64,000 nt of DNA. Source: a phage. The number at the start of each line of letters is the position of its first letter. Position 1 is the stretch's first letter. Position numbers and translations under genes: made by a program. The notes beneath the pieces are model-generated. The model made no database searches, was not told where the DNA came from, and was given only the letters and a program-made list of their open reading frames with translations. The stretch lies in the sequence record OZ346219.1; one strand, 5' to 3'. Shown here one piece after another: positions 6,253 to 31,708 of this stretch.

Positions 6253-6729
6253 TTATTTTTCTTGATGCTCGCGATCGTACTTTTCGAAATAAAATTCTAC
6301 TGGCTGGTCATGAATTGACAGTAAGCCAAAGCGTTTAGCCGCTCGCAATCCCATATTGCGCTGAATGTACTTCTGGAAGTTCTCGCGTATACACTTACGC
6401 CAGTATTCTAAGCCCATACAGCTTTTATAAAGATTGCATTGCACACACGCCGGATTCATGTTATCAAGTATATCATGTTCCGGTTTATGCATTCCTACAA
6501 CCTTATACTTCCACGATCCATCATCATTACGGGCAATTCGTCCATTTTCATCATAGACTACCTTTGAGCGTCGCAATACTGGTTTGATGTGGTCTGCGTG
6601 CCAGCGATCCCCTAGTTCCTCGCCACAATAGGCACAACGTCCACCATATTTCATTTTCAGGATCTGGCGTTGCTCTTTCTTTGACATTTTTTTAGGTTTA
6701 GGGGCTTTCGCCCCTTCATTATCACACAT
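6253..6729 (-). CDS. HNH-type endonuclease-like zinc-finger protein
   Basis: CAYCGEELGDRWHADHIKP (CxxC...HxDH) plus downstream CVQC; start may be the internal Met at 6687. Confidence 0.5.
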   Translation of the reverse strand: MCDNEGAKAPKPKKMSKKEQRQILKMKYGGRCAYCGEELGDRWHADHIKPVLRRSKVVYDENGRIARNDDGSWKYKVVGMHKPEHDILDNMNPACVQCNLYKSCMGLEYWRKCIRENFQKYIQRNMGLRAAKRFGLLSIHDQPVEFYFEKYDREHQEK

Positions 6730-8224
6730 CGAATACCTCTTTTACTGTATTTGCAGTGGTCTTGTCGTATCGAATACGTTTGATGATCGGGAGAAATAAA
6801 GAGAACTCCGGTTCATCTTCTTTACGTGATTTGCTGCGGATATACCCGTTGCATGTCATCTCAATGACTTTTCCAATCAGGTTATGACGGTCAGCCCATA
6901 ACATTTCTCGGTCGAGTTCATTTCGACGATCGAACGGAATTACACGTTCAGTACCATCATCACCTTTTTCGGTTGTAGTGTCGGTTAATCCCGATCCGGT
7001 GTTAGTCATCATTCGTCCGCACGCACTACGGACAGTAAAACCGCCTACCTTATTGGGGTCTTTACTATGCGGATATACATCAACAATTTCCGCGTCGAAG
7101 TCAATCACTTCTTTAAATTTAACCTGATCTTTACTACGGCGATCTTCAAATACACCATGTAAATTTTTAAGGATAATACCTTCTAAGCCCATGTTGACAT
7201 AACGATGATATACTTCGCGAGCTTCATCGATATTGTTAACTACAGTGTTTTCGATGATCTGAACACGAGGATCGTTAAGTTCTTCAACAATCTGTTTTAG
7301 TTCTTCGAATCGATCTTTATATTGCTTCGTTGCTTTCTCGTTTCCGTAATACACATCACGGTCGATAACATCCCAGACAGTGTAAACAATACATTGGGCT
7401 TCTTCTTTTGGAATAGTTCCTTTCAGTGATTTGTTGAGGATACCATTTCCGGTCTGACGATCTGCAACAACGGATTCTTTTACTGCTTCCGCTACTGGCG
7501 TTAATGGCATTTCCTCTTCTTCAAATATCCATGACAGAGTACCATCATAAACGCTTTCAACGAAGTTCTGCGCTGGTGTTTGCGAAAGGGTAGGCATATA
7601 TACCAATTCCCCATCTAGAACAATTCCACGGCCTCGTAGACGCTCTAAAACCGCAAACAAATCATCAAGCCCTTGATAGGTATTACCTGAGCGGGTATAG
7701 ATTGCTAATGTTTCCCCGTCAATATCAGCCATACCACGAGCGCCATCGCTTTTAAGTTGTGCATACGCCGGATACTTGATATTAGCAATAGTCTTATCAG
7801 AACATGACGATGCAAGGTGGCACGGTTGCTGAGGGATCAGTTTCTTCCATACCTTGTTTGCGGTGGTAGCGGAACAACCGCATTCCAGATCACGATTCAG
7901 GACCATCATTGCAACTTTAGCATCATCCTCTGACAAGCAAGTCAGAGTATCGGTAACTAGCTGTAATGCTGCATTACCAGTTACTTGACGCGTGGCAAGT
8001 TTATTTTTAAAGACCTGTAATGCACCGGATAAAGACAATACAGACGAATAGCGAGATGGTTTATCGTATTTCTTTACGCCAAACGTAACCTGTTTGCAAT
8101 ATGCCAGATAAAAGCATTCTTTCAGCGTTTCATTGCTTGCTGATTCTTTCAGAATCTTTTCTTTCAGCGATGTTTTGTCTGTTGCTGCAAGCTGATTAAT
8201 GATATTAAGAATTGACATTTTCAC
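6722..8224 (-). CDS. 30: ATP-dependent DNA ligase (T4 gp30-like)
   Basis: 500 aa; adenylation motif LKSDGARG; T4-like length and position. Confidence 0.9.
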   Translation of the reverse strand: MKMSILNIINQLAATDKTSLKEKILKESASNETLKECFYLAYCKQVTFGVKKYDKPSRYSSVLSLSGALQVFKNKLATRQVTGNAALQLVTDTLTCLSEDDAKVAMMVLNRDLECGCSATTANKVWKKLIPQQPCHLASSCSDKTIANIKYPAYAQLKSDGARGMADIDGETLAIYTRSGNTYQGLDDLFAVLERLRGRGIVLDGELVYMPTLSQTPAQNFVESVYDGTLSWIFEEEEMPLTPVAEAVKESVVADRQTGNGILNKSLKGTIPKEEAQCIVYTVWDVIDRDVYYGNEKATKQYKDRFEELKQIVEELNDPRVQIIENTVVNNIDEAREVYHRYVNMGLEGIILKNLHGVFEDRRSKDQVKFKEVIDFDAEIVDVYPHSKDPNKVGGFTVRSACGRMMTNTGSGLTDTTTEKGDDGTERVIPFDRRNELDREMLWADRHNLIGKVIEMTCNGYIRSKSRKEDEPEFSLFLPIIKRIRYDKTTANTVKEVFDV

Positions 8225-8684
8225 CTCGTTTTGTTAAACGTTCACGAATATCATTGAGGATACTACAAAATTCCGATTCAGTCAATATAGTCTTTAACGG
8301 ATCAGTTCCACCTATACTATGACGTAATTTCTTATTTCCGGTAGCGAGTAATGCTTTACAAAATTCTGGGTTATTCCGTGCCATCGTAACAAATGCCAGA
8401 TGCACCAGTCTGTAATAATGCTCACTCATTCGATGAATCGGGCGACCCTGAAAATATAACAGGTGATTCTCAATCTTTTCAGTTCTTCCGGTTCTTTTTG
8501 CTTTGCCACCGTGCATCAAAAAGATTTCTCTTTGTCTCTGAGGGTTCTTAAATCTTAGCCCCTGTAAAAATCCTTCTGTGCTGTTAATATCGCAACCAAA
8601 TAAACGGAATGGTCTTTTATTGAAATTACTCAATTCACCCGATGGATAAGGTCCACCCGCATAGATATCAATTTCAGAAGTCAT
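8205..8684 (-). CDS. NADAR/YbiA-like domain protein
   Basis: IDIYAGGPYPSGELSNF...STEGFLQGLRF...ALLATGNKKL resembles YbiA/NADAR signature (FY..G.FSNF...SEHYFQA.KF...LL.T). Confidence 0.5.
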   Translation of the reverse strand: MTSEIDIYAGGPYPSGELSNFNKRPFRLFGCDINSTEGFLQGLRFKNPQRQREIFLMHGGKAKRTGRTEKIENHLLYFQGRPIHRMSEHYYRLVHLAFVTMARNNPEFCKALLATGNKKLRHSIGGTDPLKTILTESEFCSILNDIRERLTKRGENVNS

Positions 8685-8859
8685 TGAAACTAATCTCGCT
8701 AATCAGAGAGAACGGATCATAATCGTCATTAGGAATATCGATAGTAATCGAATGAGGATTTACCCATACACCAAACTGGTCTTCTTCGGTGAATACTTCG
8801 GTATGGATTTCGTGGATGTTTACATTCATAGTTTTCATAATAAATTCCTTAATAATCAA
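8674..8859 (-). CDS. hypothetical protein (61 aa)
   Basis: ORF between NADAR-like gene and gene 31. Confidence 0.3.
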   Translation of the reverse strand: MIIKEFIMKTMNVNIHEIHTEVFTEEDQFGVWVNPHSITIDIPNDDYDPFSLISEISFNDF

Positions 8860-8919
8860 TAACTTACAAAATCATATAGCCAAAATATAGGCGGGATTAT
8901 TTCCCGCCGTTTAAAATCA

Positions 8920-9243
8920 TTAACCGTAAACTACCACAATATTCTGTTTGTGCGTTACAGTCCATTTCAGGTCGATCTCTTCTTCCTTCTTAACGCCGTT
9001 AATAACGTCTGGATGAGGAACTTTATTCATCTTGCCATGTGGCAGTAGAACAGTTTTACCCAGCAATTCTTTATCTACCGTCTCGCCAATATCAATAATC
9101 TTACCTACCAGCGGAATCTCGCCCATAGTGCGCTTTTGCTCAATAATGATCCCAATAGAGCTTTTTACTTCTGTCCCTGCGCTTTCTGCTTTAGCTTCAA
9201 TGATCACATAGTCACCAAGTGCTTTAGGAGTTTTAACGGTCAT
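8920..9243 (-). CDS. 31: co-chaperonin GroES-like (T4 gp31-like)
   Basis: 107 aa; GDYVII...NKVPHP resembles gp31/GroES; T4-like position before cd. Confidence 0.7.
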   Translation of the reverse strand: MTVKTPKALGDYVIIEAKAESAGTEVKSSIGIIIEQKRTMGEIPLVGKIIDIGETVDKELLGKTVLLPHGKMNKVPHPDVINGVKKEEEIDLKWTVTHKQNIVVVYG

Positions 9244-9284
9244 AATTTTATTACCTCTTCAAATCAATACAGTTTAATGATGAA

Positions 9285-9605
9285 TTATTTATAAATTTCG
9301 ACGATCTGCGCTGGAGTCAGCCCGTCTACATTAATCAGAGTATCAAGCCCAAAACTACGGAAACCTTCAACTGCAATTTCATATACTGGCAAAGATGTTT
9401 CTGATTCTTTACGCGGTTTTTCAACATTAGGAACTAACCACTTTTCGTATGTTTCAAACGGCATCAGTGCCGGATCTCGCGTGGCGATCATCTCACGGAC
9501 AGTACCATCTTTCTTAGTAAACTGCAAAGAGTGAGTACCGACCGAAAACATTTTCTTTAGTGCTTCACGAAGTGCGATATTATCAACTTGTTCAGTCATT
9601 ATCAA
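9285..9605 (-). CDS. hypothetical protein (106 aa)
   Basis: ORF between cd and gene 31. Confidence 0.4.
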   Translation of the reverse strand: MIMTEQVDNIALREALKKMFSVGTHSLQFTKKDGTVREMIATRDPALMPFETYEKWLVPNVEKPRKESETSLPVYEIAVEGFRSFGLDTLINVDGLTPAQIVEIYK

Positions 9606-10098
9606 TACCCTTCAAATCAGTCAATAATGCTTTTGGAATACGCGTGATCGTAATATCTGCATTATTCAGAATATCAGCCCAATCACGCCCACCATTTCGG
9701 TCATATGTGTCGCAATAGTATAGATGTTTGATTCCACTGTTTGCAATTGCTTTAGCGCAATCTGGACAAGGTGAAGCAGTGCACCACATACTAGCGCCTT
9801 CAATCGATACACCGCTACGGGCAGCAAACAAAATAGCATTTAATTCAGCGTGGATCTCGTTTTTATGTGACCATGCACTATGCTCTGGCCGTTTTTCTGG
9901 GATCATTTTGCCGTCATCATCCAGCCAACCGCTTTTATGTGCATGACAGCTACAATTTACTTGCCCTGCTGGAGTGCCGTTAAATCCAGTAGAAATGATT
10001 CGCCCGTCTTTTTCAATTAGTGCGCCTACCTTCCACGAAACACATTTAGAGTTCTTTGCGATTAGATAGGCGATCTGCATGTAAGTTTGTGACAACAT
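9592..10098 (-). CDS. cd: dCMP deaminase
   Basis: 168 aa; cytidine/dCMP deaminase zinc motifs HAELNAI and PCPDC. Confidence 0.9.
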   Translation of the reverse strand: MLSQTYMQIAYLIAKNSKCVSWKVGALIEKDGRIISTGFNGTPAGQVNCSCHAHKSGWLDDDGKMIPEKRPEHSAWSHKNEIHAELNAILFAARSGVSIEGASMWCTASPCPDCAKAIANSGIKHLYYCDTYDRNGGRDWADILNNADITITRIPKALLTDLKGIDND

Positions 10099-10119
10099 AA
10101 TATAATCCTCACATATTAA

Positions 10120-10323
10120 TTAACCGTATACGCGAAAGTATTCTACTGATCCGTCGCTATACTGTTTTACATTGAATGTATTCACGCCATGATCATTGCT
10201 CATAATGACATACACACTGCGACGCTCATCACTAAACGGGTTAACTGGTGCTGGTTCAATTTCAACATTAAAACCACGTTTAGCAAGTGCTTCGCCTAAT
10301 TTCTTGAGTTTATCGGTAAACAT
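10120..10323 (-). CDS. hypothetical protein (67 aa)
   Basis: ORF between pseT and cd. Confidence 0.35.
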   Translation of the reverse strand: MFTDKLKKLGEALAKRGFNVEIEPAPVNPFSDERRSVYVIMSNDHGVNTFNVKQYSDGSVEYFRVYG

Positions 10324-11222
10324 TAAAAGTCTCCGTAGTTAACCTGAAAACATTCTACACCAATTGAGCGATACATGTCAACCACTTGATCACGGTCATC
10401 TACCGCCAAAACAACATGATAACGCGGTGCAATTTCAGAGAAGAAGATCTCTTTCTTCACTTCATGATCAGGACGACGATCATTAGTTTCACGTTGAAAG
10501 TGATCACTCGGTTCAATACCCTGTTCACGCAACCATTGCAGAGTATCTTCTTCGCAAACATCCTCACGCCCTGAGCATGTAATGATACGATAACCATTAT
10601 CACGATACAGTTTAAGCATTTCGACCACTTGCGGACGAGGTTTATCTTCTTTGACCTTTGTCCAGTCAAACGGATGACGACCGCCCTTATCCGCTAATGT
10701 CCCATCAATATCAAAGATCACTGCCTTTGGCAGCATGGTATTCGGTTTGTATACTTCTTGACCCATATATTCCTGCATCAGATAAAATTGGTTGCGCAAA
10801 TGAGAAAGTGGAATTGCTTTCTCACCGCGATAGAAATTACGTTTCTTTAGTGTCTCAAATGATTCATTGAACACTTGTTCAGTATACACCGCGTTAAATT
10901 CTTTTGCAAGTTCTTTGTAGAATACACGATGTTTTTCTTTCAGGTTGGTATCAGAGATAATGATACTTAATCCGCGTGATAGAGTCTCACGAGCAATCAT
11001 TCTCTGAATAGACTCTACCAGCTTTTCTTTTTCCTTAGTATACTTGTATTTCAAATGTGAGTCAACACCAAACAACATAAGACGAAGATCATCACGATTC
11101 ACATTACGATAATTACTAAACCGTTTACATGTTTCCATCGCCCATGTAGTTTTACCGGACCCAGAACAACCAACGGTTAAAATCACTTCACATTTCGGCA
11201 TTATTTCTCCTTCGGTTTGCAC
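10323..11222 (-). CDS. pseT: polynucleotide 5'-kinase/3'-phosphatase
   Basis: 299 aa; N-terminal P-loop GCSGSGKTT and C-terminal HAD phosphatase motif VIFDIDGTLAD. Confidence 0.9.
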   Translation of the reverse strand: MQTEGEIMPKCEVILTVGCSGSGKTTWAMETCKRFSNYRNVNRDDLRLMLFGVDSHLKYKYTKEKEKLVESIQRMIARETLSRGLSIIISDTNLKEKHRVFYKELAKEFNAVYTEQVFNESFETLKKRNFYRGEKAIPLSHLRNQFYLMQEYMGQEVYKPNTMLPKAVIFDIDGTLADKGGRHPFDWTKVKEDKPRPQVVEMLKLYRDNGYRIITCSGREDVCEEDTLQWLREQGIEPSDHFQRETNDRRPDHEVKKEIFFSEIAPRYHVVLAVDDRDQVVDMYRSIGVECFQVNYGDF

Positions 11223-11533
11223 CGTTCCTCATTAAGTTCTTTTCGATAATAACACATGATCAACTTACTTTCAAGTGTATATCTCTTAATATCCGCAAGC
11301 CAGACTCTGAATTTTTGGGAGTCCTCCCACGACATAGAAACTCTAGGTTTACCGTCTATTGTATCCACTTTCAGGTCAATGTCAACTTTTTCTATTGGTG
11401 CTGGTAGTGGAGGATGTAATTTCGGTTCCTGTGAATAATGGTCCATTGTACACGAAGAAAGCGCAAATACAATAGGCAAAGCGAAGACATGGATTATGGA
11501 GGTCTGAAAATTCTTATGTGCTTTCTTAAACAT
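11201..11533 (-). CDS. putative o-spanin (outer-membrane lipoprotein)
   Basis: Start trimmed to Met41: MFKKAHKNFQTSIIHVFALPIVFALSSC (signal peptide with lipobox-like LSSC) followed by proline-rich PKLHPPLPAP; T4 pseT.2-like position. Confidence 0.5.
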   Translation of the reverse strand: MFKKAHKNFQTSIIHVFALPIVFALSSCTMDHYSQEPKLHPPLPAPIEKVDIDLKVDTIDGKPRVSMSWEDSQKFRVWLADIKRYTLESKLIMCYYRKELNEERCKPKEK

Positions 11534-11649
11534 CCAGTGTATCACGAAAATTGAAAACACCATCAGGATAATAATGCTTGCACCTATCCACAGATAATCA
11601 ACCAGATTAAAATTGCTTATCTGCTCTTGTGTAGGCAATATTTCTATGC

Positions 11650-11973
11650 TCATTTAGTAGCCTCCTTTAATTCTTCGGTAAACTCCTTAAATGAATCATT
11701 AAGCTGTTTCTCTACCAACTTTGGTTTTTGTGCTACTACATAGCCTCGTGTAGCGTCTTTCATTGCTTTGTTTTGTTCTTCCGCAAACTTAGTTCTTATT
11801 CCATACATCTCCTTTTGTAGTGAGTCTACGACCTTCATCTTTTCATCGGTCTTTTTCTTATACTCTGTAAATTCCTGATTCAGTCGATCTACCTCCTTTT
11901 TATTTTCCCACCACATATTACCACCTACCCCTAGCAACACAGAGATGATAACAATGTATATCAGCTTTGACAT
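11650..11973 (-). CDS. putative i-spanin (inner-membrane anchor plus coiled coil)
   Basis: Start trimmed to Met18: N-terminal TM segment LIYIVIISVLLGVGG then K/E-rich helical region; T4 pseT.3-like position. Confidence 0.5.
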   Translation of the reverse strand: MSKLIYIVIISVLLGVGGNMWWENKKEVDRLNQEFTEYKKKTDEKMKVVDSLQKEMYGIRTKFAEEQNKAMKDATRGYVVAQKPKLVEKQLNDSFKEFTEELKEATK

Positions 11974-11986
11974 ATTACCCCCAACG

Positions 11987-12011
11987 ACAAAAGGCGGGGA
12001 ACTAGCCCCGC
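11987..12011 (-). terminator. terminator-like hairpin after rnlA
   Basis: Minus-strand GCGGGGctagttCCCCGC followed by CTTTTG; intergenic if i-spanin starts at 11973. Confidence 0.4.
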
Positions 12012-12017
12012 TTATTA

Positions 12018-13187
12018 TTACCAATCAATCTTATCAGCCGGAATAAGTTTCTTATAATTCCGTAGATAGTAAGTTTTCATTGAATCCAGAATACGGTCAT
12101 AATCAAGACCATCAAATGCAATCATCAGACACATGAAAATATATGCTTGTGCATCACCATGTTTACGTGATTCGATAGTCGCATTTGATGCATATGTCTT
12201 TCTGTCTTCTCCCGCGTGTGCGTTATAAAATTCTGTTGCTGTCGTGAAGGCATTGCGAAGAATAGACCTGAATGCTTCCTCGAATAGCTCGATTCGTTCC
12301 AGTGCTTCCGGTTCGCCTTCATATGCAGCACGCAAATCATCGGTTTCGCTTTCTACGACATAGTAGATCAGGTTATTAGGAAACATCGATGTGTTTTTAA
12401 TGTTATGCACACCAATATACCATTCACTCTTCACTTTGAACATTTGACCGTCTTTAGTGCGTGCAACAATTCCTTCGATACCTTCTGCGGTCCGAACTTC
12501 ATCAAGAATATTGCTAAAACGCGCTGAATCAACCTGTAACGCATTTACCAGATGAGGACGTAGGATTGCGTCAGAAAATAGCATTTGATGCGGTACGTAC
12601 TCTCCTGTGACGTTATGGCGTACATTCAGAAGTGTTAGCGACGGTTCAGAATATTCTACAACAATTCGGTTGCTGGGCGCTGTATATTCAAAGTTGAAAG
12701 TATAATCAGACCCAATATCAGCAATCTTAGCGCGTAGATCCGCATACTTCTCTGAATACAGAAGACCGTTTGCTCTCTCTGCCTGGCTTGAGTACAAGGC
12801 CGCTTTAGACTTCAACTGAACATAGCCGTTATCAATGTAGGTGCTTACTAGACTACCGTCCATTTTGTCCATGACCATTTCCACATCTTCCGGCTTAAAG
12901 CGAGCGCGATCATTCTCACCCAAATTAAAAAACTTCTCCATAGGACGAGATGCAATGCGGACAGGTCGGTCTTTATCATCGATTTCAAACATGATCCCGC
13001 GACACTCTAACGCATCTGGTTTATTCCACATTTCCGGTTTGCTCAAGTACAGATAACTAAAAATGCGCATACGGGTTTGCATCGCCGTAATTTCATCTTT
13101 GTAATAGAACGTATCAGATCCGTCACATAGTGCCATCAGATTTTTGAACAATGCTAAAACTTTTTTGTTGTTTTCTTTTGTTGACAT
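12018..13187 (-). CDS. rnlA: RNA ligase 1
   Basis: 389 aa; T4 Rnl1-like length and position after denA. Confidence 0.8.
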   Translation of the reverse strand: MSTKENNKKVLALFKNLMALCDGSDTFYYKDEITAMQTRMRIFSYLYLSKPEMWNKPDALECRGIMFEIDDKDRPVRIASRPMEKFFNLGENDRARFKPEDVEMVMDKMDGSLVSTYIDNGYVQLKSKAALYSSQAERANGLLYSEKYADLRAKIADIGSDYTFNFEYTAPSNRIVVEYSEPSLTLLNVRHNVTGEYVPHQMLFSDAILRPHLVNALQVDSARFSNILDEVRTAEGIEGIVARTKDGQMFKVKSEWYIGVHNIKNTSMFPNNLIYYVVESETDDLRAAYEGEPEALERIELFEEAFRSILRNAFTTATEFYNAHAGEDRKTYASNATIESRKHGDAQAYIFMCLMIAFDGLDYDRILDSMKTYYLRNYKKLIPADKIDW

Positions 13188-13584
13188 AATTTGTGTTCCA
13201 TTCTGGTTTAAATTTGGTGATCAAAACAGGTTCTTCGATATCGGCAGTGCTTATAATATCCTTACCCGTTGGATTCTCAATATATAACTCAAAGCACTGG
13301 CGGTAATAGAATGTTACTGTCTTACCTTCCTCTAGCGCCTTATGAATATTCTTACTCTTGCGAGTATCCGCTGTTGGTGTTTGTCTGTTAATGCTAGTCC
13401 GGTAATAATTGATCCGCTTTCTGAGATTGACAGTCTGACCAATATATACCAGTTCATCATCAACAACAATAGCGTAAAGAACATTTAAACGGTTCTTCTG
13501 AGGCGGCAGAATCACATCACCATCTTTACACTCTAAACATGAATATTTAACGAATCCATAGTTTTCTATTAGCTCATTAATCAT
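13123..13584 (-). CDS. denA: endonuclease II (GIY-YIG family)
   Basis: VLYAIVVDDELVYIGQTVNLRKRINYYRTSINR closely matches the T4 DenA GIY-YIG core; 3' end overlaps rnlA start. Confidence 0.8.
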   Translation of the reverse strand: MINELIENYGFVKYSCLECKDGDVILPPQKNRLNVLYAIVVDDELVYIGQTVNLRKRINYYRTSINRQTPTADTRKSKNIHKALEEGKTVTFYYRQCFELYIENPTGKDIISTADIEEPVLITKFKPEWNTNYVNKRKQQKSFSIVQKSDGTM

Positions 13585-13634
13585 TATCCTTTCCTCACGT
13601 CACAACAAAGGCGGGATTTCTCCCGCCCGCCTTA

Positions 13635-14033: not shown

Positions 14034-14066
14034 CTTGATACTCCTTAGTTGTTTTGGTATGGGAGT

Positions 14067-14095
14067 ATCTTACTACTCCCGTGATATGCTGTCAA
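14067..14095 (-). promoter_or_regulatory. early-type promoter cassette with palindrome across the -10
   Basis: TTGACA, 17 bp, TAAGAT; GGGAGTAgtaagaTACTCCC. Confidence 0.55.
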
Positions 14096-14104
14096 CTGCT
14101 TTTT

Positions 14105-14254: not shown

Positions 14255-14292
14255 TTGATTCTCCTTAAAGTGTATTTCGTTTCGATGGGGGT

Positions 14293-14321
14293 ATATTACT
14301 ACCCCCGTTTCATGCTGTCAA
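14293..14321 (-). promoter_or_regulatory. early-type promoter cassette with palindrome across the -10
   Basis: TTGACA, 17 bp, TAATAT; GGGGGTAgtaataTACCCCC. Confidence 0.55.
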
Positions 14322-14540: not shown

Positions 14541-14573
14541 TTTGATTCTCCTTTGTTTCGTTTCGATGGGAGT

Positions 14574-17117: not shown

Positions 17118-17146
17118 ATTATAGCGGGGATTTCTCCCCGCGTCAA
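17118..17146 (-). promoter_or_regulatory. early-type promoter cassette with spacer palindrome
   Basis: TTGACG, spacer CGGGGAGAAATCCCCGC, TATAAT; precedes the three-ORF small-gene operon. Confidence 0.55.
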
Positions 17147-19398: not shown

Positions 19399-19445
19399 AT
19401 TACCTCACTTCATATTTTAGCAGGAACAAGTTTATCCTCCATATT

Positions 19446-19461
19446 GGGGGCTTTCGCCCCC
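19446..19461 (-). other. GNRA-tetraloop hairpin GGGGGC-GAAA-GCCCCC in the td-nrdA intergenic transcript (no U-tract)
   Basis: Perfect 6-bp GC stem with GAAA loop in mRNA sense; identical element at 31693-31708 (plus strand) and a 5-bp version at 6701-6714. Confidence 0.5.
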
Positions 19462-19466
19462 TTTGT

Positions 19467-20699
19467 TTATACTGCCATTTGAGCGGTGATTGCTGGATGG
19501 CTTTGATAGTTGTGAATTTTAAAGTCTTTCGGAGTCTTTGTCAATACCTCATCTAAAGATTTAAATTCCGGCAACTCAATCGTTGGTTTATCAAACGGAA
19601 CACGGCTTAACTGTTCCATAACTTGATCAAAATGGTTTTTGTAAATGTGAGTATCTCCACCAGAGAAAATCAGTTCTCCTACCTCAAGATCACACATTTT
19701 CGCTATGATGTGAGTTAACAGCGCATAGCTGGCGACGTTAAAGGGCAAGCCTAAAAAGCTGTCTACGCTTCTCTGAAACCACATACAAGACAGTTTACCT
19801 TCATTGACGTAGAATTGCACGAAAGGATGACATACACCCAATACAGCATTATGTGTTCCTTGTACGTTCCATGAGTCAATAATGATCCGGCGATCCGTTG
19901 GATTGTTTTTAATTTGTTCAATCACGTTTTGTAACTGGTCTTCCCAAATCTTCGGGCGATAGACATATTCTTCATCGTCTTTAGTGCTCGATGTGTCTAC
20001 GTCCATACTAGCAAAGATCGTGGTATCTGGTGCTAAAATATCCCCACCCAGATAATCACTATCAAGCAGATAACCGAAATAACCATCATCTACCCATTCC
20101 TGGAATCCCCACAAGCAATATGCATCATTAACAAAATTAGATTGAGTCTTCCAGTGGTCTGCTACTAAGAATAGATTATACTCAGAATCAAACTCTTCAT
20201 AACGCATACCACGCCAGATAGCACATAAACGGTCTTCTGTTTCATTGGTTGGCGTAAAGTCTTCTACCCACGGGTGCTTAAATGTATGTGCATATTTGCT
20301 CTTAACGCGCTTAATTTTGATTTCACCGTGTGGATGAATCGGTTTGCGTCGCCATGCCATACCATACATATTGCCGACATTATAACCATTGAATCGCAAA
20401 GGATTCTTTTCTTTCATATCAAGACAGTTGCCGCGCCAAATGTCGAAGGCTTCTTCGTCAAACTTACCGCGTGTAATTTCCTGTAAGCGACGGCGGTCAA
20501 GTGATCCCTCCATAAACCATAGCAATTCGCCAATTACAGAGGCTGTAGCCATCTTTTTAGTGGTTAGTAAGGGGAAACCCTTGCTTAAATCAATTCGCAT
20601 CTCTGCGCCGAATTTAGAGAGCGTACCTACCCCCGTGCGGTCTTCACGAGGCCAGCCATTATCAAGAACATCACGCAATAGTTTCAAATATTCTTTCAT
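19467..20699 (-). CDS. td: thymidylate synthase with a large internal insertion
   Basis: N-terminal DRTGVGTLS...GFPLLTTKK and C-terminal DSFLGLPFNVASYALLTHIIAKMCDLEVGELIFSGGDTHIYKNH match ThyA; 410 aa instead of about 265-290. Confidence 0.9.
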   Translation of the reverse strand: MKEYLKLLRDVLDNGWPREDRTGVGTLSKFGAEMRIDLSKGFPLLTTKKMATASVIGELLWFMEGSLDRRRLQEITRGKFDEEAFDIWRGNCLDMKEKNPLRFNGYNVGNMYGMAWRRKPIHPHGEIKIKRVKSKYAHTFKHPWVEDFTPTNETEDRLCAIWRGMRYEEFDSEYNLFLVADHWKTQSNFVNDAYCLWGFQEWVDDGYFGYLLDSDYLGGDILAPDTTIFASMDVDTSSTKDDEEYVYRPKIWEDQLQNVIEQIKNNPTDRRIIIDSWNVQGTHNAVLGVCHPFVQFYVNEGKLSCMWFQRSVDSFLGLPFNVASYALLTHIIAKMCDLEVGELIFSGGDTHIYKNHFDQVMEQLSRVPFDKPTIELPEFKSLDEVLTKTPKDFKIHNYQSHPAITAQMAV

Positions 20700-23180: not shown

Positions 23181-23209
23181 ATTTTATCCTCCGTTGTTTC
23201 GATGTGTGC

Positions 23210-23262: not shown

Positions 23263-23290
23263 TAAAAAAAGCCTCCCCGAAGGAAGGCTT
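23263..23290 (-). terminator. intrinsic terminator after gene 32
   Basis: Minus-strand AGCCTTCC-ttcg-GGGAGGCT (UUCG loop) followed by TTTTTTT. Confidence 0.65.
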
Positions 23291-23299
23291 TAAAATTCA

Positions 23300-24274: not shown

Positions 24275-24334
24275 AATTATACCTCTTTATACATTAACTA
24301 TTGATTAATTTACGTTTTATACTATATCAGATAC

Positions 24335-24931: not shown

Positions 24932-25595
24932 CTTTTAACCTCGATATTTCTTTACACTCTTTAACTACTTTAACAAATAATGCTCTTGCTTTTGCGGCGT
25001 CAATAACAAGTAGTTTCTTGTACGCCTTCATTTTAACACTATAAGTTTGCCAAATCAAGTCTTTGGCTACCTTGTCGTGTTCGTCGATTATATTTAGAAA
25101 GCTATCTAACAACATAAACGACTCAAACGATATAATCCGATTTTGCAGTAGTTTAAAGATACCGCTAGTTTCGGTTGCGGGATTGTATGTAATTAGCTCT
25201 TTAAGAGTAACCCCGCGTTTCTCGGAGAAGTATACCAGACTTTTAATGTCATCGTCAAATCGTGTTGCTGCATCGGTTATCTTTCCTATGTATTCCATAT
25301 AAAAGCCGTATGCGTCAACATCAGTGATTTCACCTACCCATGCATCGGTATTAGCTACCAGATTGCTTAGGAATAGGAAGTATAATTCTCTTAGATTGTA
25401 CTTTTCCGCTAATTTCGCGAAATAATACTTATCTCTGCGTTTATTGAATGCGGCATCAGATAACCGCATCCTCCAATTGTATTTTACGCAATCATAACGC
25501 CCGTTCATATGAGCTTTCATCATGCAATATAACATATACACAGATTTAGCATTAATTCGCATATCTGGATCTGGAGGAAGACGGTTTCTGATCAT
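24918..25595 (-). CDS. 59: helicase loader (T4 gp59-like)
   Basis: KSVYMLYCMMKAHMNGRYDCVKYNWRMRLSDAAFNKRRDKYYF closely matches T4 gp59. Confidence 0.9.
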   Translation of the reverse strand: MIRNRLPPDPDMRINAKSVYMLYCMMKAHMNGRYDCVKYNWRMRLSDAAFNKRRDKYYFAKLAEKYNLRELYFLFLSNLVANTDAWVGEITDVDAYGFYMEYIGKITDAATRFDDDIKSLVYFSEKRGVTLKELITYNPATETSGIFKLLQNRIISFESFMLLDSFLNIIDEHDKVAKDLIWQTYSVKMKAYKKLLVIDAAKARALFVKVVKECKEISRLKGENI

Positions 25596-25604
25596 ACATA
25601 CCCC

Positions 25605-25874
25605 TTAAATATCGAGAGTGTTGGTCGGTTCGTCGATCACTCCCTTCCTGAGCGTTCTATTTACTATACATTCTTGTGTGATCTTGTCAATAATGGACAC
25701 CGGAATATATTTCTGATAGTGACAATATTCTATAGAGTTTTCCTCTACAAACTGAGTTGTCGCTTCAAGATAAGTCAATCCCTCTTCAACAACCAGTTTT
25801 TCGATTGCAAGACCGTTTGCTGTTTTATTCGCGGCTTTTACCGCATGTTCATTAAGCATTGAACACCCGATCAT
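25605..25874 (-). CDS. 33: late-transcription accessory protein (T4 gp33-like)
   Basis: GLTYLEATTQFVEENSI...PTNTLDI resembles T4 gp33; T4 position. Confidence 0.7.
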   Translation of the reverse strand: MIGCSMLNEHAVKAANKTANGLAIEKLVVEEGLTYLEATTQFVEENSIEYCHYQKYIPVSIIDKITQECIVNRTLRKGVIDEPTNTLDI

Positions 25875-26127
25875 AGAGTTCTACCGCTTCGTCGCGTTCT
25901 GCTTCGAAGGTTTCGCGCTGTTGCTGGTGATACAGTTTAAACAGAATGCCCCACATTTTACCATCTACGCCTAATTCTTCTTTAGCACGCTGTTTGATCT
26001 CTTTGATCTTATCGCCATATGCTTCTTGAATGGTTTTCTGATCGCTGGCTTCTTTAATCAGTTGCGCCAGGGTATTTCCGTGTACATTTTCATCGAATAC
26101 TACTTTTTCTTTTTTCTGTTCAGTCAT
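25852..26127 (-). CDS. dsbA: DsbA-like dsDNA-binding protein (by position and size)
   Basis: 91 aa; sits between 33 and rnh as in T4; no motif checked. Confidence 0.45.
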   Translation of the reverse strand: MTEQKKEKVVFDENVHGNTLAQLIKEASDQKTIQEAYGDKIKEIKQRAKEELGVDGKMWGILFKLYHQQQRETFEAERDEAVELYDRVFNA

Positions 26128-26132
26128 AATAT

Positions 26133-26729
26133 TTAACCCTCTTTCGTCATTAATTGAAAACCACGTTCAGCTTTTGAAATTTCGCTAGGACTTAAATCGT
26201 CACCAACATATTCTAGCATCATTTCTCGGATAATGTCAAGTGCTTTTTCATCACCTGATTTTAACTCGAACTCAAGTTCATAGTGAGCCTCTCCCATTCT
26301 TTCGCCGACTTTGCAATAATAGAAAGTGTCTTTGCACATTTCCACTATAGCACCCTCAAGGTCAAGTGTCAATGACTTGCGGTATGTCATTACTTGCAAT
26401 AAAGGAACGATAAGGTCGGAGTTTACGCCTAGACTATCAACATAATGATAGAAATCATCCATTGTTGAAAAAGTAATTTCTTCTCGGTTGAAGAGTCCAG
26501 ATTCACTATCACCTATTTTGACCATGATCAATGATCTATTAACGTCAAGTCGAGCATAAATTCCTTTTCGACGCAGTGCATGATCTTCGGTATCATAATA
26601 AAATTCGTGTTTTAGAGTGTTAGCACGATCTACTAGATTGTACCCGTCATACATTGCTACCCACAAATCACAGATTGTTTCGACGCCAATTTGTGAGTGT
26701 GCATAGTATTTTAATTCAAGTTCTTTCAT
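26133..26729 (-). CDS. CYTH-like (triphosphate tunnel metalloenzyme) domain protein
   Basis: N-terminal ELELKYY (ExExK) and C-terminal ELEFELK acidic motifs; 198 aa; no counterpart at this position in T4. Confidence 0.5.
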   Translation of the reverse strand: MKELELKYYAHSQIGVETICDLWVAMYDGYNLVDRANTLKHEFYYDTEDHALRRKGIYARLDVNRSLIMVKIGDSESGLFNREEITFSTMDDFYHYVDSLGVNSDLIVPLLQVMTYRKSLTLDLEGAIVEMCKDTFYYCKVGERMGEAHYELEFELKSGDEKALDIIREMMLEYVGDDLSPSEISKAERGFQLMTKEG

Positions 26730-26739
26730 ATATCAACCC

Positions 26740-27687
26740 TTAGAACTCACCAATTTTCTGCAACATTTTAACTAACGCATTTGTTACAAAATAGTTATAA
26801 ATTTTACCGCGTGGTGCTGGTTTAGATTTCTCCCATGCTAACAAAATTTCATATTCGATGTTATCAGGAATAAATTCAAAATCAATAAGTTCGCGGTTTT
26901 CGTCAAAGCGTCGTGCTTCTTCCTCTGTCATCAAAGACTTTGGATCTTCGGCATCGAAAATTTGCTCTAACCATTTGGTTGCAATTGGTTTAGCTCGTTC
27001 TCCTTCCAGTCGTGAGATAATGAAATCACTACGGCACTTGATCGAAGCTACACCGTCTTTTGCGTCACCCTTAACACATTTTACCATAAGGTCTTTGTAA
27101 GGGCTACCATATTTGCATTTCTTCCATGCTTTCTGTACTGGTGCCCACTGTTTCACATTTTTGTATTTGTGCAACTGTGTGTAGTCACCATCGCCGGAGT
27201 TGATTAGCACCTGGCGACCTTCTACAGAAAACTTTTTAGTTAACACAGCGATTATATCATCCGCTTCAACTTTGTCAACCTTAATAACGTGATAAGGCAT
27301 GTTCTCTTTAAACTCTTCGGTGATCTTATTGATCGCAGAAAAGATCATCTCCCAATCACGCGGATCTGCGTCTCGTTTTTCCTTACGGTTGCGTTTATAG
27401 TAAGGTGCGATATCACGTCGCCAGTAACCTTTGCTTGAATCAAAGGCAAGTACCGTAATTGGGTATTGCTCTTTGAATTTTGTCATATTATAACGCATGG
27501 TGTCAAGGATAAGATGACGGATCATGCCTTCATTAATAGGATCTTCCGGTTTAAAGGTATGTGAGATAGTAGCAATCATAAGCTGCGACATATCAATCAA
27601 ATGCACACCTTCCGGCAGTTTATCTTCTGGATCATCAAAGAAATCATTAAGTGTAGCGGTAGTTTTTGTAAACGGGTTATACGTCAT
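26740..27687 (-). CDS. rnh: RNase H / 5'-3' exonuclease
   Basis: 315 aa; matches T4 RNase H (GYWRRD, EADD, SGDGDYTQL, RGKIY). Confidence 0.9.
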   Translation of the reverse strand: MTYNPFTKTTATLNDFFDDPEDKLPEGVHLIDMSQLMIATISHTFKPEDPINEGMIRHLILDTMRYNMTKFKEQYPITVLAFDSSKGYWRRDIAPYYKRNRKEKRDADPRDWEMIFSAINKITEEFKENMPYHVIKVDKVEADDIIAVLTKKFSVEGRQVLINSGDGDYTQLHKYKNVKQWAPVQKAWKKCKYGSPYKDLMVKCVKGDAKDGVASIKCRSDFIISRLEGERAKPIATKWLEQIFDAEDPKSLMTEEEARRFDENRELIDFEFIPDNIEYEILLAWEKSKPAPRGKIYNYFVTNALVKMLQKIGEF

Positions 27688-27689
27688 AA

Positions 27690-27875
27690 TTAAGTTCTCT
27701 CCACTCTCACAACAACATATTCGCCAAACGAGTTAGATACTTCACGATCATACCCGTACTTCTCCATAACTCGCAGAATTGCATTGTTTAATTCAGCACG
27801 GAAATAATTATAATCCTTATCAGGGATTCTGTCAACTACCCATTTTGCACCTTCTGACAAATCAACTTTAACCAT
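27690..27875 (-). CDS. hypothetical protein (61 aa)
   Basis: ORF between rnh and the plus-strand gene 34. Confidence 0.35.
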   Translation of the reverse strand: MVKVDLSEGAKWVVDRIPDKDYNYFRAELNNAILRVMEKYGYDREVSNSFGEYVVVRVERT

Positions 27876-27913
27876 AATTTATCATCCTCTTTTGTTTCTA
27901 TCAAGCCTCATTT

Positions 27914-27921
27914 TATAAATA
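27914..27921 (+). promoter_or_regulatory. T4-type late promoter motif TATAAATA upstream of gene 34
   Basis: Exact TATAAATA about 29 nt before ATG at 27950; AAGGAG ribosome-binding site at 27936-27941. Confidence 0.6.
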
Positions 27922-27949
27922 TGAACATACTATAAAAGGAGACCCAATA

Positions 27950-30900
27950 ATGGCAGATTTTTCTCAACATTTCAAGGCCACATTTGGCTTTGACGCTGGT
28001 AATGAAAAGGTCGTCAATGTAGCATTGGCTGATAAGAATGTCAACACCGATGCGGTCAACGTTGAATTTTTCAATTACCATAATGGTATTACTCAGTATG
28101 ACACAACTCGCGGTTATGATCAATACGGAACTACAATCTATCAAAACCGTCCGTATTATGCAAAAGAAGATATCACAAAGCCAGCAGGAGATTTTGACCC
28201 GACTAAATGGCAAGCACTGCGCACGGACCCACGTTGGGATTATATTGCAGCAACTTCCGGTGATACTCCTTTACAGTCTGGCGATTATATCGCAGCAGAT
28301 GGTCAATTTGCAAACTTGACTTTCTCTATGCCAACTAAACCAGCAGAGGGAGACACTATAACAGTAAAAGATATCGGTGGCAAGTGTGGTGTTAACGAAT
28401 TATCGTTCTTGAGTACAGGACATGAGTTTTACCATAATGGTAATGTGTATAACAGAAAATGGTATTGCACTACCCCGTATGCAATGAACTATTTCATCTT
28501 TGTTCGGAATCGTTGGCATGTTTATCAGACAGGAACAGAGCCACGCGGTGTGTACGCACAGCCAGCGATTGATGCTATTCAAATGCAGAATGGTGATCAG
28601 GTATTTCGTCGTAGTTCGTTGGGTAATATTACCTTAGTGCTTCCTAAGTTTGCCAACAATGGCGACATGATCCAGACTACAGACCTTGACGGATTAACCG
28701 CAACCAACCACGTTACGGTTAAAGTTCATGAGCACGCAGAAGAACAATCAATTGGCACGTCCGGTCTAAAAGAGATTATCGGTAAGCGTAGCGGTCATGG
28801 TGTATTCATCTTTGACAAGACGGAAAACTTATGGCGTTTGTGGGATGGTGATCAGTCTGTTCGTCTTAAACCGATCATCAATGACACTCGCTTGCAACCT
28901 AATAGCTATGTTGCTGTATTTGGTGGTCGTGATGTTACTCTGACGCTGCCGACCAATGTCGAGCCGGGTGATCGTATTCAAGTTTCTATGCAGTATATGC
29001 ACGGAAACCAGACTTGCCGAATCATTACCTCAGAAGAGGATACAAAAATCCTTATGCAGAAAAACATGGTTCAGTTTCCTAAGCGTAGCGAGTACCCATT
29101 CAATGGGACCGATACATGGACTGGAGTGTCTGAATTGTCTTTCAACGCTGCAAATGATTATGTACCTTATCTGGAGTTCTCTTATTCAGAAGGTGATGAT
29201 GGTAAGAAATACTGGTTGGTGGCACATGCTCACCCGATTGTAGAACGAGTAGATCCGACTCGTAAAGATCGTGTTGGTGTAATTGCACTGGCTACCCAGA
29301 CTGAAACGAATAAAAACCATGAAGAGAATCCTAGCGACGAAGTTGCTGTAACACCAAAAATGCTGGCTAATAAAACAGCCAACGAAACTCGACGCGGTAT
29401 TGCTCGCATTGCGACTCAAGCGGAAACGCATCAAGATACTGGTTCCAACTTCCTGGATGATGTTATCGTTACACCCAAAAAGTTAAATGACTGTGTTGCT
29501 ACCGAAGCCCGTCGTGGTGTGATGGAAATTGCAACCCAGCACGAAACCAATGAAGGTTTAGACGATACCCGCGCTATTACTCCTAAGAAATTAGAAGAAC
29601 GTCGCGCTTCCGAAGATCTAGCTGGTATTGCTGAAATTGTTCAGGCTGGCGGTAGTGCTGCCGCTCGACGTGGCGAAGCTGGTACAGGGATCTATAACAT
29701 CAACGACCATGCTAAAATTGTTACGCCACAAAACATCAACGAAGTCAAGGCGACCGAAACTTCCCGTGGTGTTGGCTATCTGGCAACTGACGCGGAAGTG
29801 CAAGGGGCTACAGAATCAACCCCGCAAGATGCTTTACTAATCACGACTCGCACGCTAACGAAACGTACTGCTACCGAATCGCGCACTGGTATCGCTGAAA
29901 TTGCAACTCAGGAAGAAACAAACTTAGGTCAAAGTGATAACCATATCATCACGCCTAAAAAGCTGCATACTCGCCGCGCAACTGAAACTTTACATGGTTT
30001 AGCAGAAATTGCAACTCAACCGGAGTTTGACGCAGGTCGTGACGATTCTCGCATTTCTACCCCATTGAAGATTAAAACCTTCTTTGAGAATGCACAGCGT
30101 TTGAAAGTAGATCCGACTCAGGGGCTTAACCTTACTGGTGATTTGTGGCAAGGTATCATGATCAGCGGTCTGGATGCAACCGAAGACACAAAAGGTGTCG
30201 CTAAAGTTGCGACTACTCAGCTTACTGACGCTGGTCAAGATGATACTACAATCATCACGCCTAAAAAGCTGCAAGGCAAAAAGGCCACCGAAGGTAAAGA
30301 AGGTATTATCCGAGTTGGTACTCAAGCCGAAACCGTGGCTGGTATTATGGACAATGTAGCAATTTCTCCGAAGAACTTCAAATATGTTGTTCAGACAGAG
30401 GATACATGGAAAGCAACCGAAGCGCGTCGTGGATTCTTGAAAGTTGCTACTCAGGAAAACTGTTTTGTTGGTGATAATCTGCAAGGTTCTACTCAAGAAC
30501 TAGGAAACTACCAGCATGACGGAATTGCTGTTACCCCTAAAGGATTAAACTACGCACTTGCTAATTTCTTACCTAAGATGGCAACCGCTCAGAATAGTTT
30601 GAAATTGGGTAACGTAGAGGCCTCTAAATGGGCGCGTAGAGACATTGACCAGACCATTGAGAGCAATTACACGTTTAATAAAAACGTTAACGTGAAGGGC
30701 GATTTAGAGTGCTTAAAATCTGGTTCCTTTGAAACTCTGTCTGTGACTAAGAACTCGACCGATGTTCCGAGTAATGGTCATCTGGTGTTGGGTGAGCGTG
30801 GAGTTGACGGTCACACCGGAATTACTCTGCATGGCACAACCGCATCGGAAGGCATGAAAAACTCTTGGTCTATTATCGTTGGTGGTACTGGAACAGCGCA

Positions 30901-31690
30901 AGTTGTTGATAGTGATGCTATCGCTTTCGGTAAAATCAATGATGGTGGAGTCGTTGAGCATTACGCCTTTGCTATGAAACACAATGGCGACGCGACAGCA
31001 TATAGAGACTTTATTGCAGGTCGTAACCTGTATGCGAAACAAGGCGGTTTATACATTGTTGACCAGTCTAATCCGGCAATGACTCGTTCCCCAGATGGTA
31101 TGCTGAATATCGGTCACGGTGGAAGTGTTAACATCAAGGCAGGGCATCAAACGTTAACTACAGAGATCGCCGGACAGAAGTATCAGATCGTACACGCAGG
31201 AAACGCTGACGAAGTTCTTAACCGTCAGTTTGTTAAGAATGCTGGCGATACAATGGTCGGTAAGCTGACTATGGATAATGCGCCTATTGTTTCTGTTAAG
31301 CATGAAGCTAGCGCGGCAACCGCTCCGGCAATCGGTAACATCGGTTTCTGGAATATGCGAGTTACTACCCAGAACATCAAAGAAACTTATCCAGAGAAGA
31401 AAAACGGTACTCTGATGCAATGGGGTACTGACGCGGACGGGCTTACCCAGCTTTGGTCCCCTGATGGTACTCATAAACATTATATCCGTTCCGGTACTGG
31501 TGGTCAATGGACCGCATGGGGTGAAATTTACACCAAACAGAACAAGCCTACCGCTCAGGAAATCGGGGCAGTAGTTGCAGAAGGTGGTTTAATGAACTCT
31601 ATGACGGTTCGTGATTGGATCAAAGTTGGTAATGTTAAAATCATCGCCAATAATCTGACTCGTACCGTAGACTTTATCTGGGAAGACTAA
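27950..31690 (+). CDS. 34: long tail fibre proximal subunit
   Basis: 1246 aa; T4 gp34-like N-terminus and repeated ATExRRGIAxIATQ motifs. Confidence 0.9.
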   Translation: MADFSQHFKATFGFDAGNEKVVNVALADKNVNTDAVNVEFFNYHNGITQYDTTRGYDQYGTTIYQNRPYYAKEDITKPAGDFDPTKWQALRTDPRWDYIAATSGDTPLQSGDYIAADGQFANLTFSMPTKPAEGDTITVKDIGGKCGVNELSFLSTGHEFYHNGNVYNRKWYCTTPYAMNYFIFVRNRWHVYQTGTEPRGVYAQPAIDAIQMQNGDQVFRRSSLGNITLVLPKFANNGDMIQTTDLDGLTATNHVTVKVHEHAEEQSIGTSGLKEIIGKRSGHGVFIFDKTENLWRLWDGDQSVRLKPIINDTRLQPNSYVAVFGGRDVTLTLPTNVEPGDRIQVSMQYMHGNQTCRIITSEEDTKILMQKNMVQFPKRSEYPFNGTDTWTGVSELSFNAANDYVPYLEFSYSEGDDGKKYWLVAHAHPIVERVDPTRKDRVGVIALATQTETNKNHEENPSDEVAVTPKMLANKTANETRRGIARIATQAETHQDTGSNFLDDVIVTPKKLNDCVATEARRGVMEIATQHETNEGLDDTRAITPKKLEERRASEDLAGIAEIVQAGGSAAARRGEAGTGIYNINDHAKIVTPQNINEVKATETSRGVGYLATDAEVQGATESTPQDALLITTRTLTKRTATESRTGIAEIATQEETNLGQSDNHIITPKKLHTRRATETLHGLAEIATQPEFDAGRDDSRISTPLKIKTFFENAQRLKVDPTQGLNLTGDLWQGIMISGLDATEDTKGVAKVATTQLTDAGQDDTTIITPKKLQGKKATEGKEGIIRVGTQAETVAGIMDNVAISPKNFKYVVQTEDTWKATEARRGFLKVATQENCFVGDNLQGSTQELGNYQHDGIAVTPKGLNYALANFLPKMATAQNSLKLGNVEASKWARRDIDQTIESNYTFNKNVNVKGDLECLKSGSFETLSVTKNSTDVPSNGHLVLGERGVDGHTGITLHGTTASEGMKNSWSIIVGGTGTAQVVDSDAIAFGKINDGGVVEHYAFAMKHNGDATAYRDFIAGRNLYAKQGGLYIVDQSNPAMTRSPDGMLNIGHGGSVNIKAGHQTLTTEIAGQKYQIVHAGNADEVLNRQFVKNAGDTMVGKLTMDNAPIVSVKHEASAATAPAIGNIGFWNMRVTTQNIKETYPEKKNGTLMQWGTDADGLTQLWSPDGTHKHYIRSGTGGQWTAWGEIYTKQNKPTAQEIGAVVAEGGLMNSMTVRDWIKVGNVKIIANNLTRTVDFIWED

Positions 31691-31692
31691 TT

Positions 31693-31708
31693 AAAGGGGG
31701 CGAAAGCC
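31693..31708 (+). other. GNRA-tetraloop hairpin GGGGGC-GAAA-GCCCCC between genes 34 and 35
   Basis: Identical 16-mer to the minus-sense element at 19446-19461; no U-tract. Confidence 0.5.

Follow-up and report, generated by a model that had tools for sequence, protein, structure and literature searches.

A GAAA-looped hairpin repeated behind three genes of a Krischvirus phage as a candidate read-through barrier in messenger RNA

Introduction

Why should a phage place the same short hairpin behind genes on both strands of its genome, and does such a hairpin end the transcript or serve it in some other way? This question is raised by a 64,000-nucleotide (nt) stretch of phage DNA (sequence record OZ346219.1; hereafter, the window), in which a stem made of a G-run and a C-run and capped by a GAAA loop follows the td gene, gene 34 and the DNA ligase gene. 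The window comes from a T4-type coliphage of the RB49-like genus Krischvirus (over the stretch 30.5-33 kb, identity is 99.3% to phage W115 and 98.3% to RB49), and the identities of the genes around the three sites were taken from the annotated relatives TB34, GEC-3S and RB49. A first-pass annotation of this DNA had reported the three hairpins and had considered them an RNA stability or processing element. Our analysis favors, with a probability of roughly 0.5, that they are promoter-less copies, without a U-tract, of the standard post-stop hairpin, and that they would act as exonuclease barriers that polymerase reads through, with at most weak attenuation.

Results

The three hairpins are located as follows.

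19446..19461, minus strand: td hairpin GGGGGC-GAAA-GCCCCC; the td stop TAA (19469-19467) lies 5 nt before it, and the nrdA ATG (19398) 47 nt beyond it
31695..31712, plus strand: gene 34 hairpin A-GGGGGC-GAAA-GCCCCC-U, 7 base pairs (bp); the stop (31688-31690) lies 4 nt before it, and the gene 35 ATG (31724) follows at a distance of 11 nt
6700..6715, minus strand: ligase hairpin A-GGGGC-GAAA-GCCCC-U, downstream of the ligase stop TGA (6724-6722) by 6-7 nt and overlapping codons 5-10 of an HNH endonuclease open reading frame (ORF)

The 16-mer GGGGGCGAAAGCCCCC occurs exactly twice in the window, with 0.00 copies expected from 100 dinucleotide-preserving shuffles. The td copy lies on the minus strand at 19446-19461, precisely where it had been reported, and the gene 34 copy lies on the plus strand at 31696-31711, so that the previously given 31693-31708 is 3 nt too low. 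The distance from the gene 34 stop TAA to the 16-mer is 5 nt (4 nt when the extra A-U pair is counted), and 12 nt separate the 16-mer from the gene 35 start. The 14-mer core GGGGCGAAAGCCCC is present in 3 copies (0.01 expected), the third being the shorter-stemmed version behind the ligase gene at 6701-6714 on the minus strand. We extended the search to a genome equivalent, composed of the window and positions 17000-116999 of RB49, in which the intergenic and coding labels of the RB49 part were corrected by hand from the gene table of the record. The 14-mer was confined to the same three gene-boundary sites and was absent from gene interiors, so that the genome-wide search proposed earlier revealed no random placement. 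Shuffles and census together rule out a chance origin of the copies. With two copies on the minus strand and one on the plus strand, recurrence of the hairpin in mRNA sense on both strands is confirmed.

At all three sites the hairpin starts 5-7 nt past the stop codon, and the GAAA loop is in the sense of the flanking genes and closed by a C-G pair, C(GAAA)G. The stems of 5-7 bp consist of G-C pairs except for a closing A-U pair at two sites, and folded alone the hairpins reach -10 to -15 kcal/mol. The td hairpin folds at -13.3 kcal/mol in sense versus -12.4 kcal/mol in antisense, and the gene 34 hairpin at -14.9 kcal/mol alone, with z = -3.1 in context. The whole window gave zero matches at gathering score to curated Rfam families, which rules out a known RNA family for these hairpins.

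The orientation of the loop indicates on which molecule selection acts. Among the perfect tetraloop hairpins of the genome equivalent, 12 of the 13 intergenic ones carry a GNRA or UNCG loop in the sense orientation and none (0/13) in antisense, while inside genes such a loop in sense was found in 1 of 12 hairpins (Fisher p = 3e-5 versus intergenic). This bias strongly supports selection of the hairpins at the level of RNA. More generally, the intergenic regions of the window are rich in sense-strand G-run/C-run hairpins, which fall into three groups. The first consists of hairpins in the spacer of near-consensus TTGACA-N17-TATAAT promoters (e.g., 4697, 5823, 6217, 14061 and 17124-17141); these are the promoter/stem-loop cassettes known as PeSL, described for RB49 and phi1 (PMC2839356; PMC4122927). 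The second comprises canonical U-tract hairpins, such as those after gene 35 (32874-32896), after gene 36 and after the gene adjoining 23268-23291 (UUCG loop). The third, with neither promoter nor U-tract, contains the three copies under study together with hairpins at 60897-60912 (UGCG loop) and 47493-47510 (GAGA loop).

A U-tract was taken as about 5 or more U within the 8 nt directly 3' of the stem, and terminators were checked by a consensus scan of the window and against the published TransTerm list for RB49 (PMC1524935 supplementary file 6). The 8 nt behind the three stems are AAUAUGGA, UAUGGGGU and UAAACCUA, with 2-3 U each, and the scan flagged none of the three sites in the sense orientation, in agreement with the first-pass annotation. 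The three sites (td/nrdA, 34/35 and ligase) are also missing from the 41 terminators that TransTerm predicts in RB49. Around 19446, 31696 and 6701 no match to a sigma-70-like TTGACA-N16-18-TATAAT promoter was found, whereas neighboring PeSLs score 10-12 of 12; the lack of a surrounding promoter rules out PeSL membership of the three copies. Likewise, neither a sigma-70-like promoter nor the late-promoter core TATAAATA was found between the hairpin and nrdA (47 nt) or gene 35 (12 nt).

The surroundings of the gene 34 copy place it within an operon, which is delimited by two features.

27914..27921, plus strand: late-promoter core TATAAATA, before gene 34
32874..32896, plus strand: canonical U-tract terminator after gene 35; TransTerm lists 35-->36 in RB49

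On the plus strand this core occurs only at 27914 and at 33025, the latter before gene 36. With the promoter at 27914 common to both genes and the next core lying beyond them, genes 34 and 35 are predicted to be one late transcription unit, with the hairpin inside it and its true end at the 32874 terminator. In six other Straboviridae genera (represented by RB16, RB6, Acj61, B614, Klebsiella phi1_146043 and leE) the gap between genes 34 and 35 is only -1 to 10 nt and contains no hairpin. On this comparison the 34/35 hairpin is a lineage-specific insertion, and the same gaps rule out an ancestral regulatory element of the junction. An uncultured sister lineage (L126, approximately 82% DNA identity) has kept both stem arms (12/12) and has changed loop and 3' flank, its hairpin being GGGGGC-UUU-GCCCCC followed by the tail UUUUGGAG (UUUU).

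At the td site, a 32-nt block, ATGGCAGTATAAACAAAGGGGGCGAAAGCCCC (19447-19478, minus), spans the hairpin together with what precedes it, namely the four final codons of td, the stop and ACAAA. The block recurs with 100% identity in phages of Pseudotevenvirus (among them Margaery, leE and GAP161; L133/L134 701-732), whose td and nrdA flanks are too diverged for detection by blastn, and the identity stops abruptly, exactly at the 3' arm of the hairpin. This points to horizontal exchange or very strong constraint. T4 encodes the same MAV* ending of td with different codons; a T4 orthologue of the hairpin is absent, the 20-nt gap before nrdA.2 containing no hairpin. In Pseudotevenvirus the td hairpin is followed by UUUCUUAAC and then by the nrdA Shine-Dalgarno sequence. 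In Ec_Makalu_001 and SSG23 an extra ORF lies between td and nrdA; the new segment begins exactly at the hairpin, which is swapped, at the same spot, for another GNRA hairpin, GCGGGGA-GGAA-UCCCCGC, abutting an AAGGAG Shine-Dalgarno sequence. The td-nrdA spacer (19399-19466, minus; L135 483-834) is a hot spot for the insertion of small ORFs, namely the 100-amino-acid ORF of Ec_Makalu_001 and SSG23, and nrdA.2 and nrdA.1 in T4. In the window it holds only a 10-codon mini-ORF (ATG 19442 to TGA 19410, MEDKLVPAKI), whose final ATATGA, stop included, is the point where the spacer matches Makalu again.

Downstream of the td hairpin lies a candidate endonuclease site.

19430..19440, minus strand: RegB-like site GGAGGAUAAAC, 5 nt 3' of the td hairpin, matching 10 of 11 positions of the strong consensus GG*AGRAYARAA

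This consensus is that of strong RegB cleavage (PMC3014915), and regB is encoded by RB49. The GGAG of the site is not the Shine-Dalgarno sequence used by nrdA. Upstream of the hairpin, in the 3' end of td, a sigma-70 match TTGACA-N17-TAAAAT (11/12) is present at 19516-19544 on the minus strand; it is not among the early promoters predicted for RB49 by Nolan et al. and is treated here as a consensus match only. If it were active, the hairpin would sit in the nrdA leader. Read on the opposite (plus) strand, the td hairpin has TTTGTTTAT behind it and was picked up by the scan as terminator-like, yet the window has no plus-strand late promoter upstream of it, and an antisense terminator is further disfavored by the preference for GAAA in sense seen in the loop and orientation statistics.

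The ligase site departs from the other two. The 14-mer is present behind the ligase stop as described previously, but this is a gene boundary for ligase only, because the copy lies within codons 6-10 of the HNH endonuclease ORF annotated in GEC-3S and TB34 (6253-6729, minus). The ligase stop and the HNH ATG overlap (ATGTGTGA), and only codon 1 has a Shine-Dalgarno sequence, a good one (AGAGG). The internal ATG at codon 15 is TTG in ECD7-like relatives. Distant HNH homologues start near codon 14-15 of this ORF. From the position of the Shine-Dalgarno sequence and the change of ATG to TTG, it is more likely that the hairpin is inside the translated ORF. The HNH ORF was found in all 59 Krischvirus records; outside the genus, the relatives closest to it occur in siphophage-type genomes that are unrelated. 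In Aeh1-type phages a canonical A-tract/U-tract terminator follows the ligase gene.

The same hairpin was found well beyond Krischvirus. The complete Pseudotevenvirus-like Enterobacter phage CYPEBC003 (PV067056.1; L269-L272) contains 7 exact copies of the 14-mer (44189, 80106, 91420, 140733 and 163095 on the plus strand; 22895 and 128937 on the minus strand), all 7 in sense, with an ORF ending 0-25 nt upstream and the next start 9-36 nt downstream. A U-tract follows 6 of the 7, namely the copies at the orthologous td/nrdA site and at five other junctions, and these six UUUU-type tails run directly into the GAGG ribosome-binding site of the next gene. A mirror version, AGCCCC-GAAA-GGGGCU, is likewise repeated in this phage. 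In IMG/VR the exact 16-mer is present in at least 120 contigs. Among the matches listed, we analyzed 104 non-redundant viral occurrences: an ORF ends at most 25 nt upstream in 87 cases in the GAAA sense against 17 in antisense, a stop-hairpin-start layout occurs in 57 against 4, and only 34 have at least 5 U in the next 8 nt. Across the viral contigs with the 16-mer, A-richness upstream is weaker than U-richness downstream, which also speaks against a terminator on the antisense strand. For 92 occurrences in bacterial and archaeal genomes the corresponding counts were 34 versus 26 for an upstream ORF end and 15 versus 8 for the stop-hairpin-start layout, so that the bias toward this layout is far stronger in viruses, although the comparison is rough since the bacterial and archaeal sample is richer in G+C.

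Other features of the window

The window contains two families of hairpins of 19-20 nt, near-identical within each family; between small early ORFs, both occupy the spacer (17 nt) of promoters with the consensus TTGACA...TATAAT and represent the PeSL cassettes. Family 1 has the form AGGGGATC(ACC/GGT/GCC)GATCCCCT, and family 2 the form GGGAGTA-GTAAGA-TACTCCC. These and other individual hairpins are located as follows.

4697-4715, 5823-5841, 6217-6235 and 41845-41863; also 4454-4473, 14061-14080, 41611-41630, 14287-14306 and 42381-42400: hairpins of the two PeSL families
17124..17141, minus strand: GAAA-looped PeSL hairpin GCGGGGA-GAAA-UCCCCGC, after nrdA, in the spacer of TTGACG-N17-TATAAT
13610..13627, minus strand: hairpin GGCGGGA-GAAA-UCCCGCC with UUUGUUGUG behind it, terminator-like and corresponding to the site that TransTerm lists as denA<--ORF225c in RB49
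approximately 23268-23291 (minus strand), L138 28340-28361, L138 41719-41740 and L139 30821-40: UUCG hairpins
39535-39550 of RB49 (L138 22536-22551): GGGGGC-AUUU-GCCCCC followed by UUUGUC, inside gene 49 (endonuclease VII)

The UUCG hairpins listed are all four with a perfect or near-perfect stem in the genome equivalent; they have long mixed-sequence stems and clear U-tracts, and look like canonical terminators. In this small sample, GNRA hairpins are mostly embedded in promoters (PeSL-type) or without U-tract; one exception, in the intergenic gap 57096-57164, combines a GAAA loop and a U-tract.

RegB-like sequences are not restricted to the td junction. The invariant GGAGAATCAAA, which is the ribosome-binding site of many small early ORFs, also matches the strong RegB consensus at 10 of 11 positions, which suggests RegB-mediated shut-off of these ORFs as in T4.

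1125, 1374, 1733, 2075, 2851, 4428, 4661, 6168, 14254, 14541, 41809, 43376 and 50262, minus strand: GGAGAATCAAA sites
23182-23192, minus strand: perfect match to the RegB consensus

The td protein itself (19467-20699, minus) has 410 amino acids. It is matched by the thymidylate synthase model of Pfam in two separate segments, the best of which aligns residues 254-410 with profile positions 110-266; td thus carries an implied insertion of well over 100 residues relative to a typical ThyA of approximately 285 amino acids.

Discussion

Because no promoter match follows the hairpin, nrdA and gene 35 would have to be transcribed through it, and a hairpin that is transcribed through cannot be an efficient terminator. 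We therefore infer read-through inside a polycistronic transcript at the td and gene 34 sites. For intrinsic termination to be efficient, E. coli RNA polymerase requires a U-tract, and RNase II and polynucleotide phosphorylase (PNPase) are hindered by stable stem-loops; for these reasons a read-through barrier is the explanation that we favor. In the proposed mechanism, polymerase would mostly read through the G-run/C-run stem with its C(GAAA)G tetraloop, a few nt past the stop codon in a polycistronic mRNA, and the transcribed hairpin would block the 3'->5' exonucleases RNase II, RNase R and PNPase entering from downstream ends or endonucleolytic cuts. At td, the likely cut would be at the RegB-type GGAG site 5 nt downstream, leaving a td mRNA that ends in the hairpin. 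In addition, polymerase may pause at the hairpin or, to a small extent, terminate there. Overall, the message of the upstream cistron (td, gene 34, ligase) would be more stable than that of the downstream one (nrdA, gene 35, HNH endonuclease). The T4 long tail fiber contains three gp34 subunits per gp35, and weaker expression of gene 35 relative to gene 34 would be in keeping with this 3:1 ratio.

Several observations weigh against this interpretation, and some of them speak at the same time for a second one. The ligase copy is not cleanly intergenic and is more likely translated, as described above. A RegB-like site adjoins only 1 of the 3 copies, and late mRNAs like that of genes 34/35 have been reported as non-substrates of RegB (PMC3014915). 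By our own reasoning, a hairpin 5-7 nt past a stop codon would be melted transiently by the terminating ribosome. A literature search for RNA 3'-end mapping in T4 or Krischvirus found none. The remaining observations suggest that the hairpins may be leaky intrinsic terminators or attenuators, at which a marginal downstream sequence, or host or phage factors, would stop some polymerases and lower transcription of nrdA, gene 35 and HNH. These are the U-tracts behind the CYPEBC003 copies, including the orthologous td/nrdA site; the U-tail of the sister-lineage 34/35 hairpin; the listing of td-->nrdA as a terminator by TransTerm in RB43 (PMC1524935); and the U-less PeSL211/210 stem-loop of RB49 and phi1, which in a transcriptional fusion strongly lowered downstream lacZ, to an extent similar to that of rrnB T1 (PMC2839356), a result that points to termination. 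The 3' flank of this last stem-loop is the U-poor AUACUACAC in the window. In addition, the records of TB34, G2248, G37-3 and Margaery annotate the hairpins as 'terminator', but several of the database calls at td are on the antisense strand, owing to the TAAACAAA flank. With only 2-3 U behind each stem in this phage, none of the three sites in the TransTerm list for RB49 and downstream genes that lack a promoter of their own, we consider leaky termination the less probable explanation, although a tentative place must be kept for it. The earlier preference for a stability or processing element over a terminator thus holds as far as RNA-level selection, the missing U-tract and the presumed read-through are concerned, and is weakened by the prospect of partial termination.

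A broader form of the barrier hypothesis, which we regard as rather doubtful, is that U-less GNRA hairpins 4-10 nt past stop codons are a distinct, phage-enriched class of non-terminating punctuation that would provide processed, exonuclease-resistant 3' ends, be paired with RegB at early genes and set cistron stoichiometry; the 16-mer would then owe its presence in over 100 unrelated viral contigs to repeated origin for this purpose.

The hairpins could also be boundaries of DNA modules, that is, recombination joints for cassette swaps that leave footprints with little RNA function. The sharp end of the Pseudotevenvirus identity block at the 3' arm of the td hairpin, the replaced segment in Ec_Makalu_001 and SSG23 that begins exactly there, the two extra ORFs of T4 at the same junction, the HNH endonuclease gene adjoining the ligase copy and the insertion of the 34/35 hairpin relative to six other genera are all consistent with this, and PeSL-mediated shuffling is documented for RB49 and phi1 (PMC2839356). 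However, a role in DNA leaves unexplained both the sense-strand GNRA/UNCG bias and the orientation bias in viral contigs, and the three copies lack the conserved PeSL context of ~100 bp (promoter and AT-rich region) proposed to support recombination. We find this explanation improbable, with the reservation that DNA-level and RNA-level roles are not mutually exclusive.

Least likely of all is translational control, in which the hairpin would limit de novo ribosome loading, so that translation downstream would depend on coupling or be reduced. The position of the hairpin would suit this, since it covers +14 to +29 of the HNH ORF, probably in a translated 5' end given the overlapping start, the good Shine-Dalgarno sequence and the TTG at codon 15 of relatives, and lies 3-11 nt before the gene 35 Shine-Dalgarno/AUG region. 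Homing-endonuclease genes of T4-type phages are known to be repressed by RNA hairpins (references cited in PMC3014915). However, the td copy, 47 nt from the nrdA start, cannot act in this way, the gene 35 Shine-Dalgarno sequence is unpaired in the predicted fold, and the start of distant HNH homologues near codon 14-15 means that the hairpin may be untranslated.

If the barrier model is true, the hairpins would be portable elements that tune the output of td/nrdA, gp34/gp35 and ligase/HNH, the last a potentially toxic nuclease, without ending transcription. This would be useful for phage engineering and also for phage annotation, since the labeling of these hairpins as terminators by automated tools is inconsistent and in some cases placed on the wrong strand.

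Relation to known systems

Among the closest known elements is the PeSL stem-loop (SLS, 'GN-loop-CN'; Arbiol et al. 2010, PMC2839356; Comeau et al. 2014, PMC4122927), which occurs in the same phage group and shares with the three copies the G-run, loop and C-run, the sense orientation and the position after a stop codon. However, PeSLs have promoter -35/-10 elements and an AT-rich upstream block, neither of which accompanies the three copies, and they lie beside ORFans in hyperplastic regions, whereas the three copies lie beside td/nrdA, gene 34/35 and ligase/HNH, one of them in a late operon. Another is the intrinsic terminator, as predicted at td-->nrdA in RB43 (Nolan et al. 2006, PMC1524935), with the same GGGGC-GAAA-GCCCC core, sense orientation and orthologous td/nrdA position. 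The three sites have the GC-rich sense stem-loop downstream of a gene that characterizes a terminator and lack its U-tract: the Pseudotevenvirus copy has one, whereas those of this phage do not, are not predicted by TransTerm in RB49 and precede a gene that needs read-through.

Stabilizing hairpins between cistrons offer a functional parallel. E. coli REP sequences are intercistronic mRNA stabilizers, but a REP element is much larger than this hairpin, for which a role as a stabilizer is proposed here. In the selective processing and stabilization of RNA (SRPS) in Clostridium cellulolyticum, hairpins are likewise intercistronic (PMC4423207). As in both systems, to which it has no sequence relationship, a stable stem-loop lies between presumably co-transcribed genes and could set the ratio of upstream to downstream message, and an endonuclease consensus adjoins the td copy. 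Finally, the three copies resemble the exceptionally stable hairpins with a C(UUCG)G tetraloop, which were first noted in T4 mRNA, and the GNRA class (PMC4371310); the hairpins of T4 and of this phage are both closed by C-G, located in phage mRNA and given a stability bonus in the RNA sense, with GAAA as the loop here and not UUCG. The hairpins thus belong to a known kind, the stable intercistronic hairpins of T4-type phages, as a promoter-less, U-less relative of the PeSL and Pseudotevenvirus hairpins. Because such hairpins have been known in T4-type phages for decades, they do not overturn current understanding.

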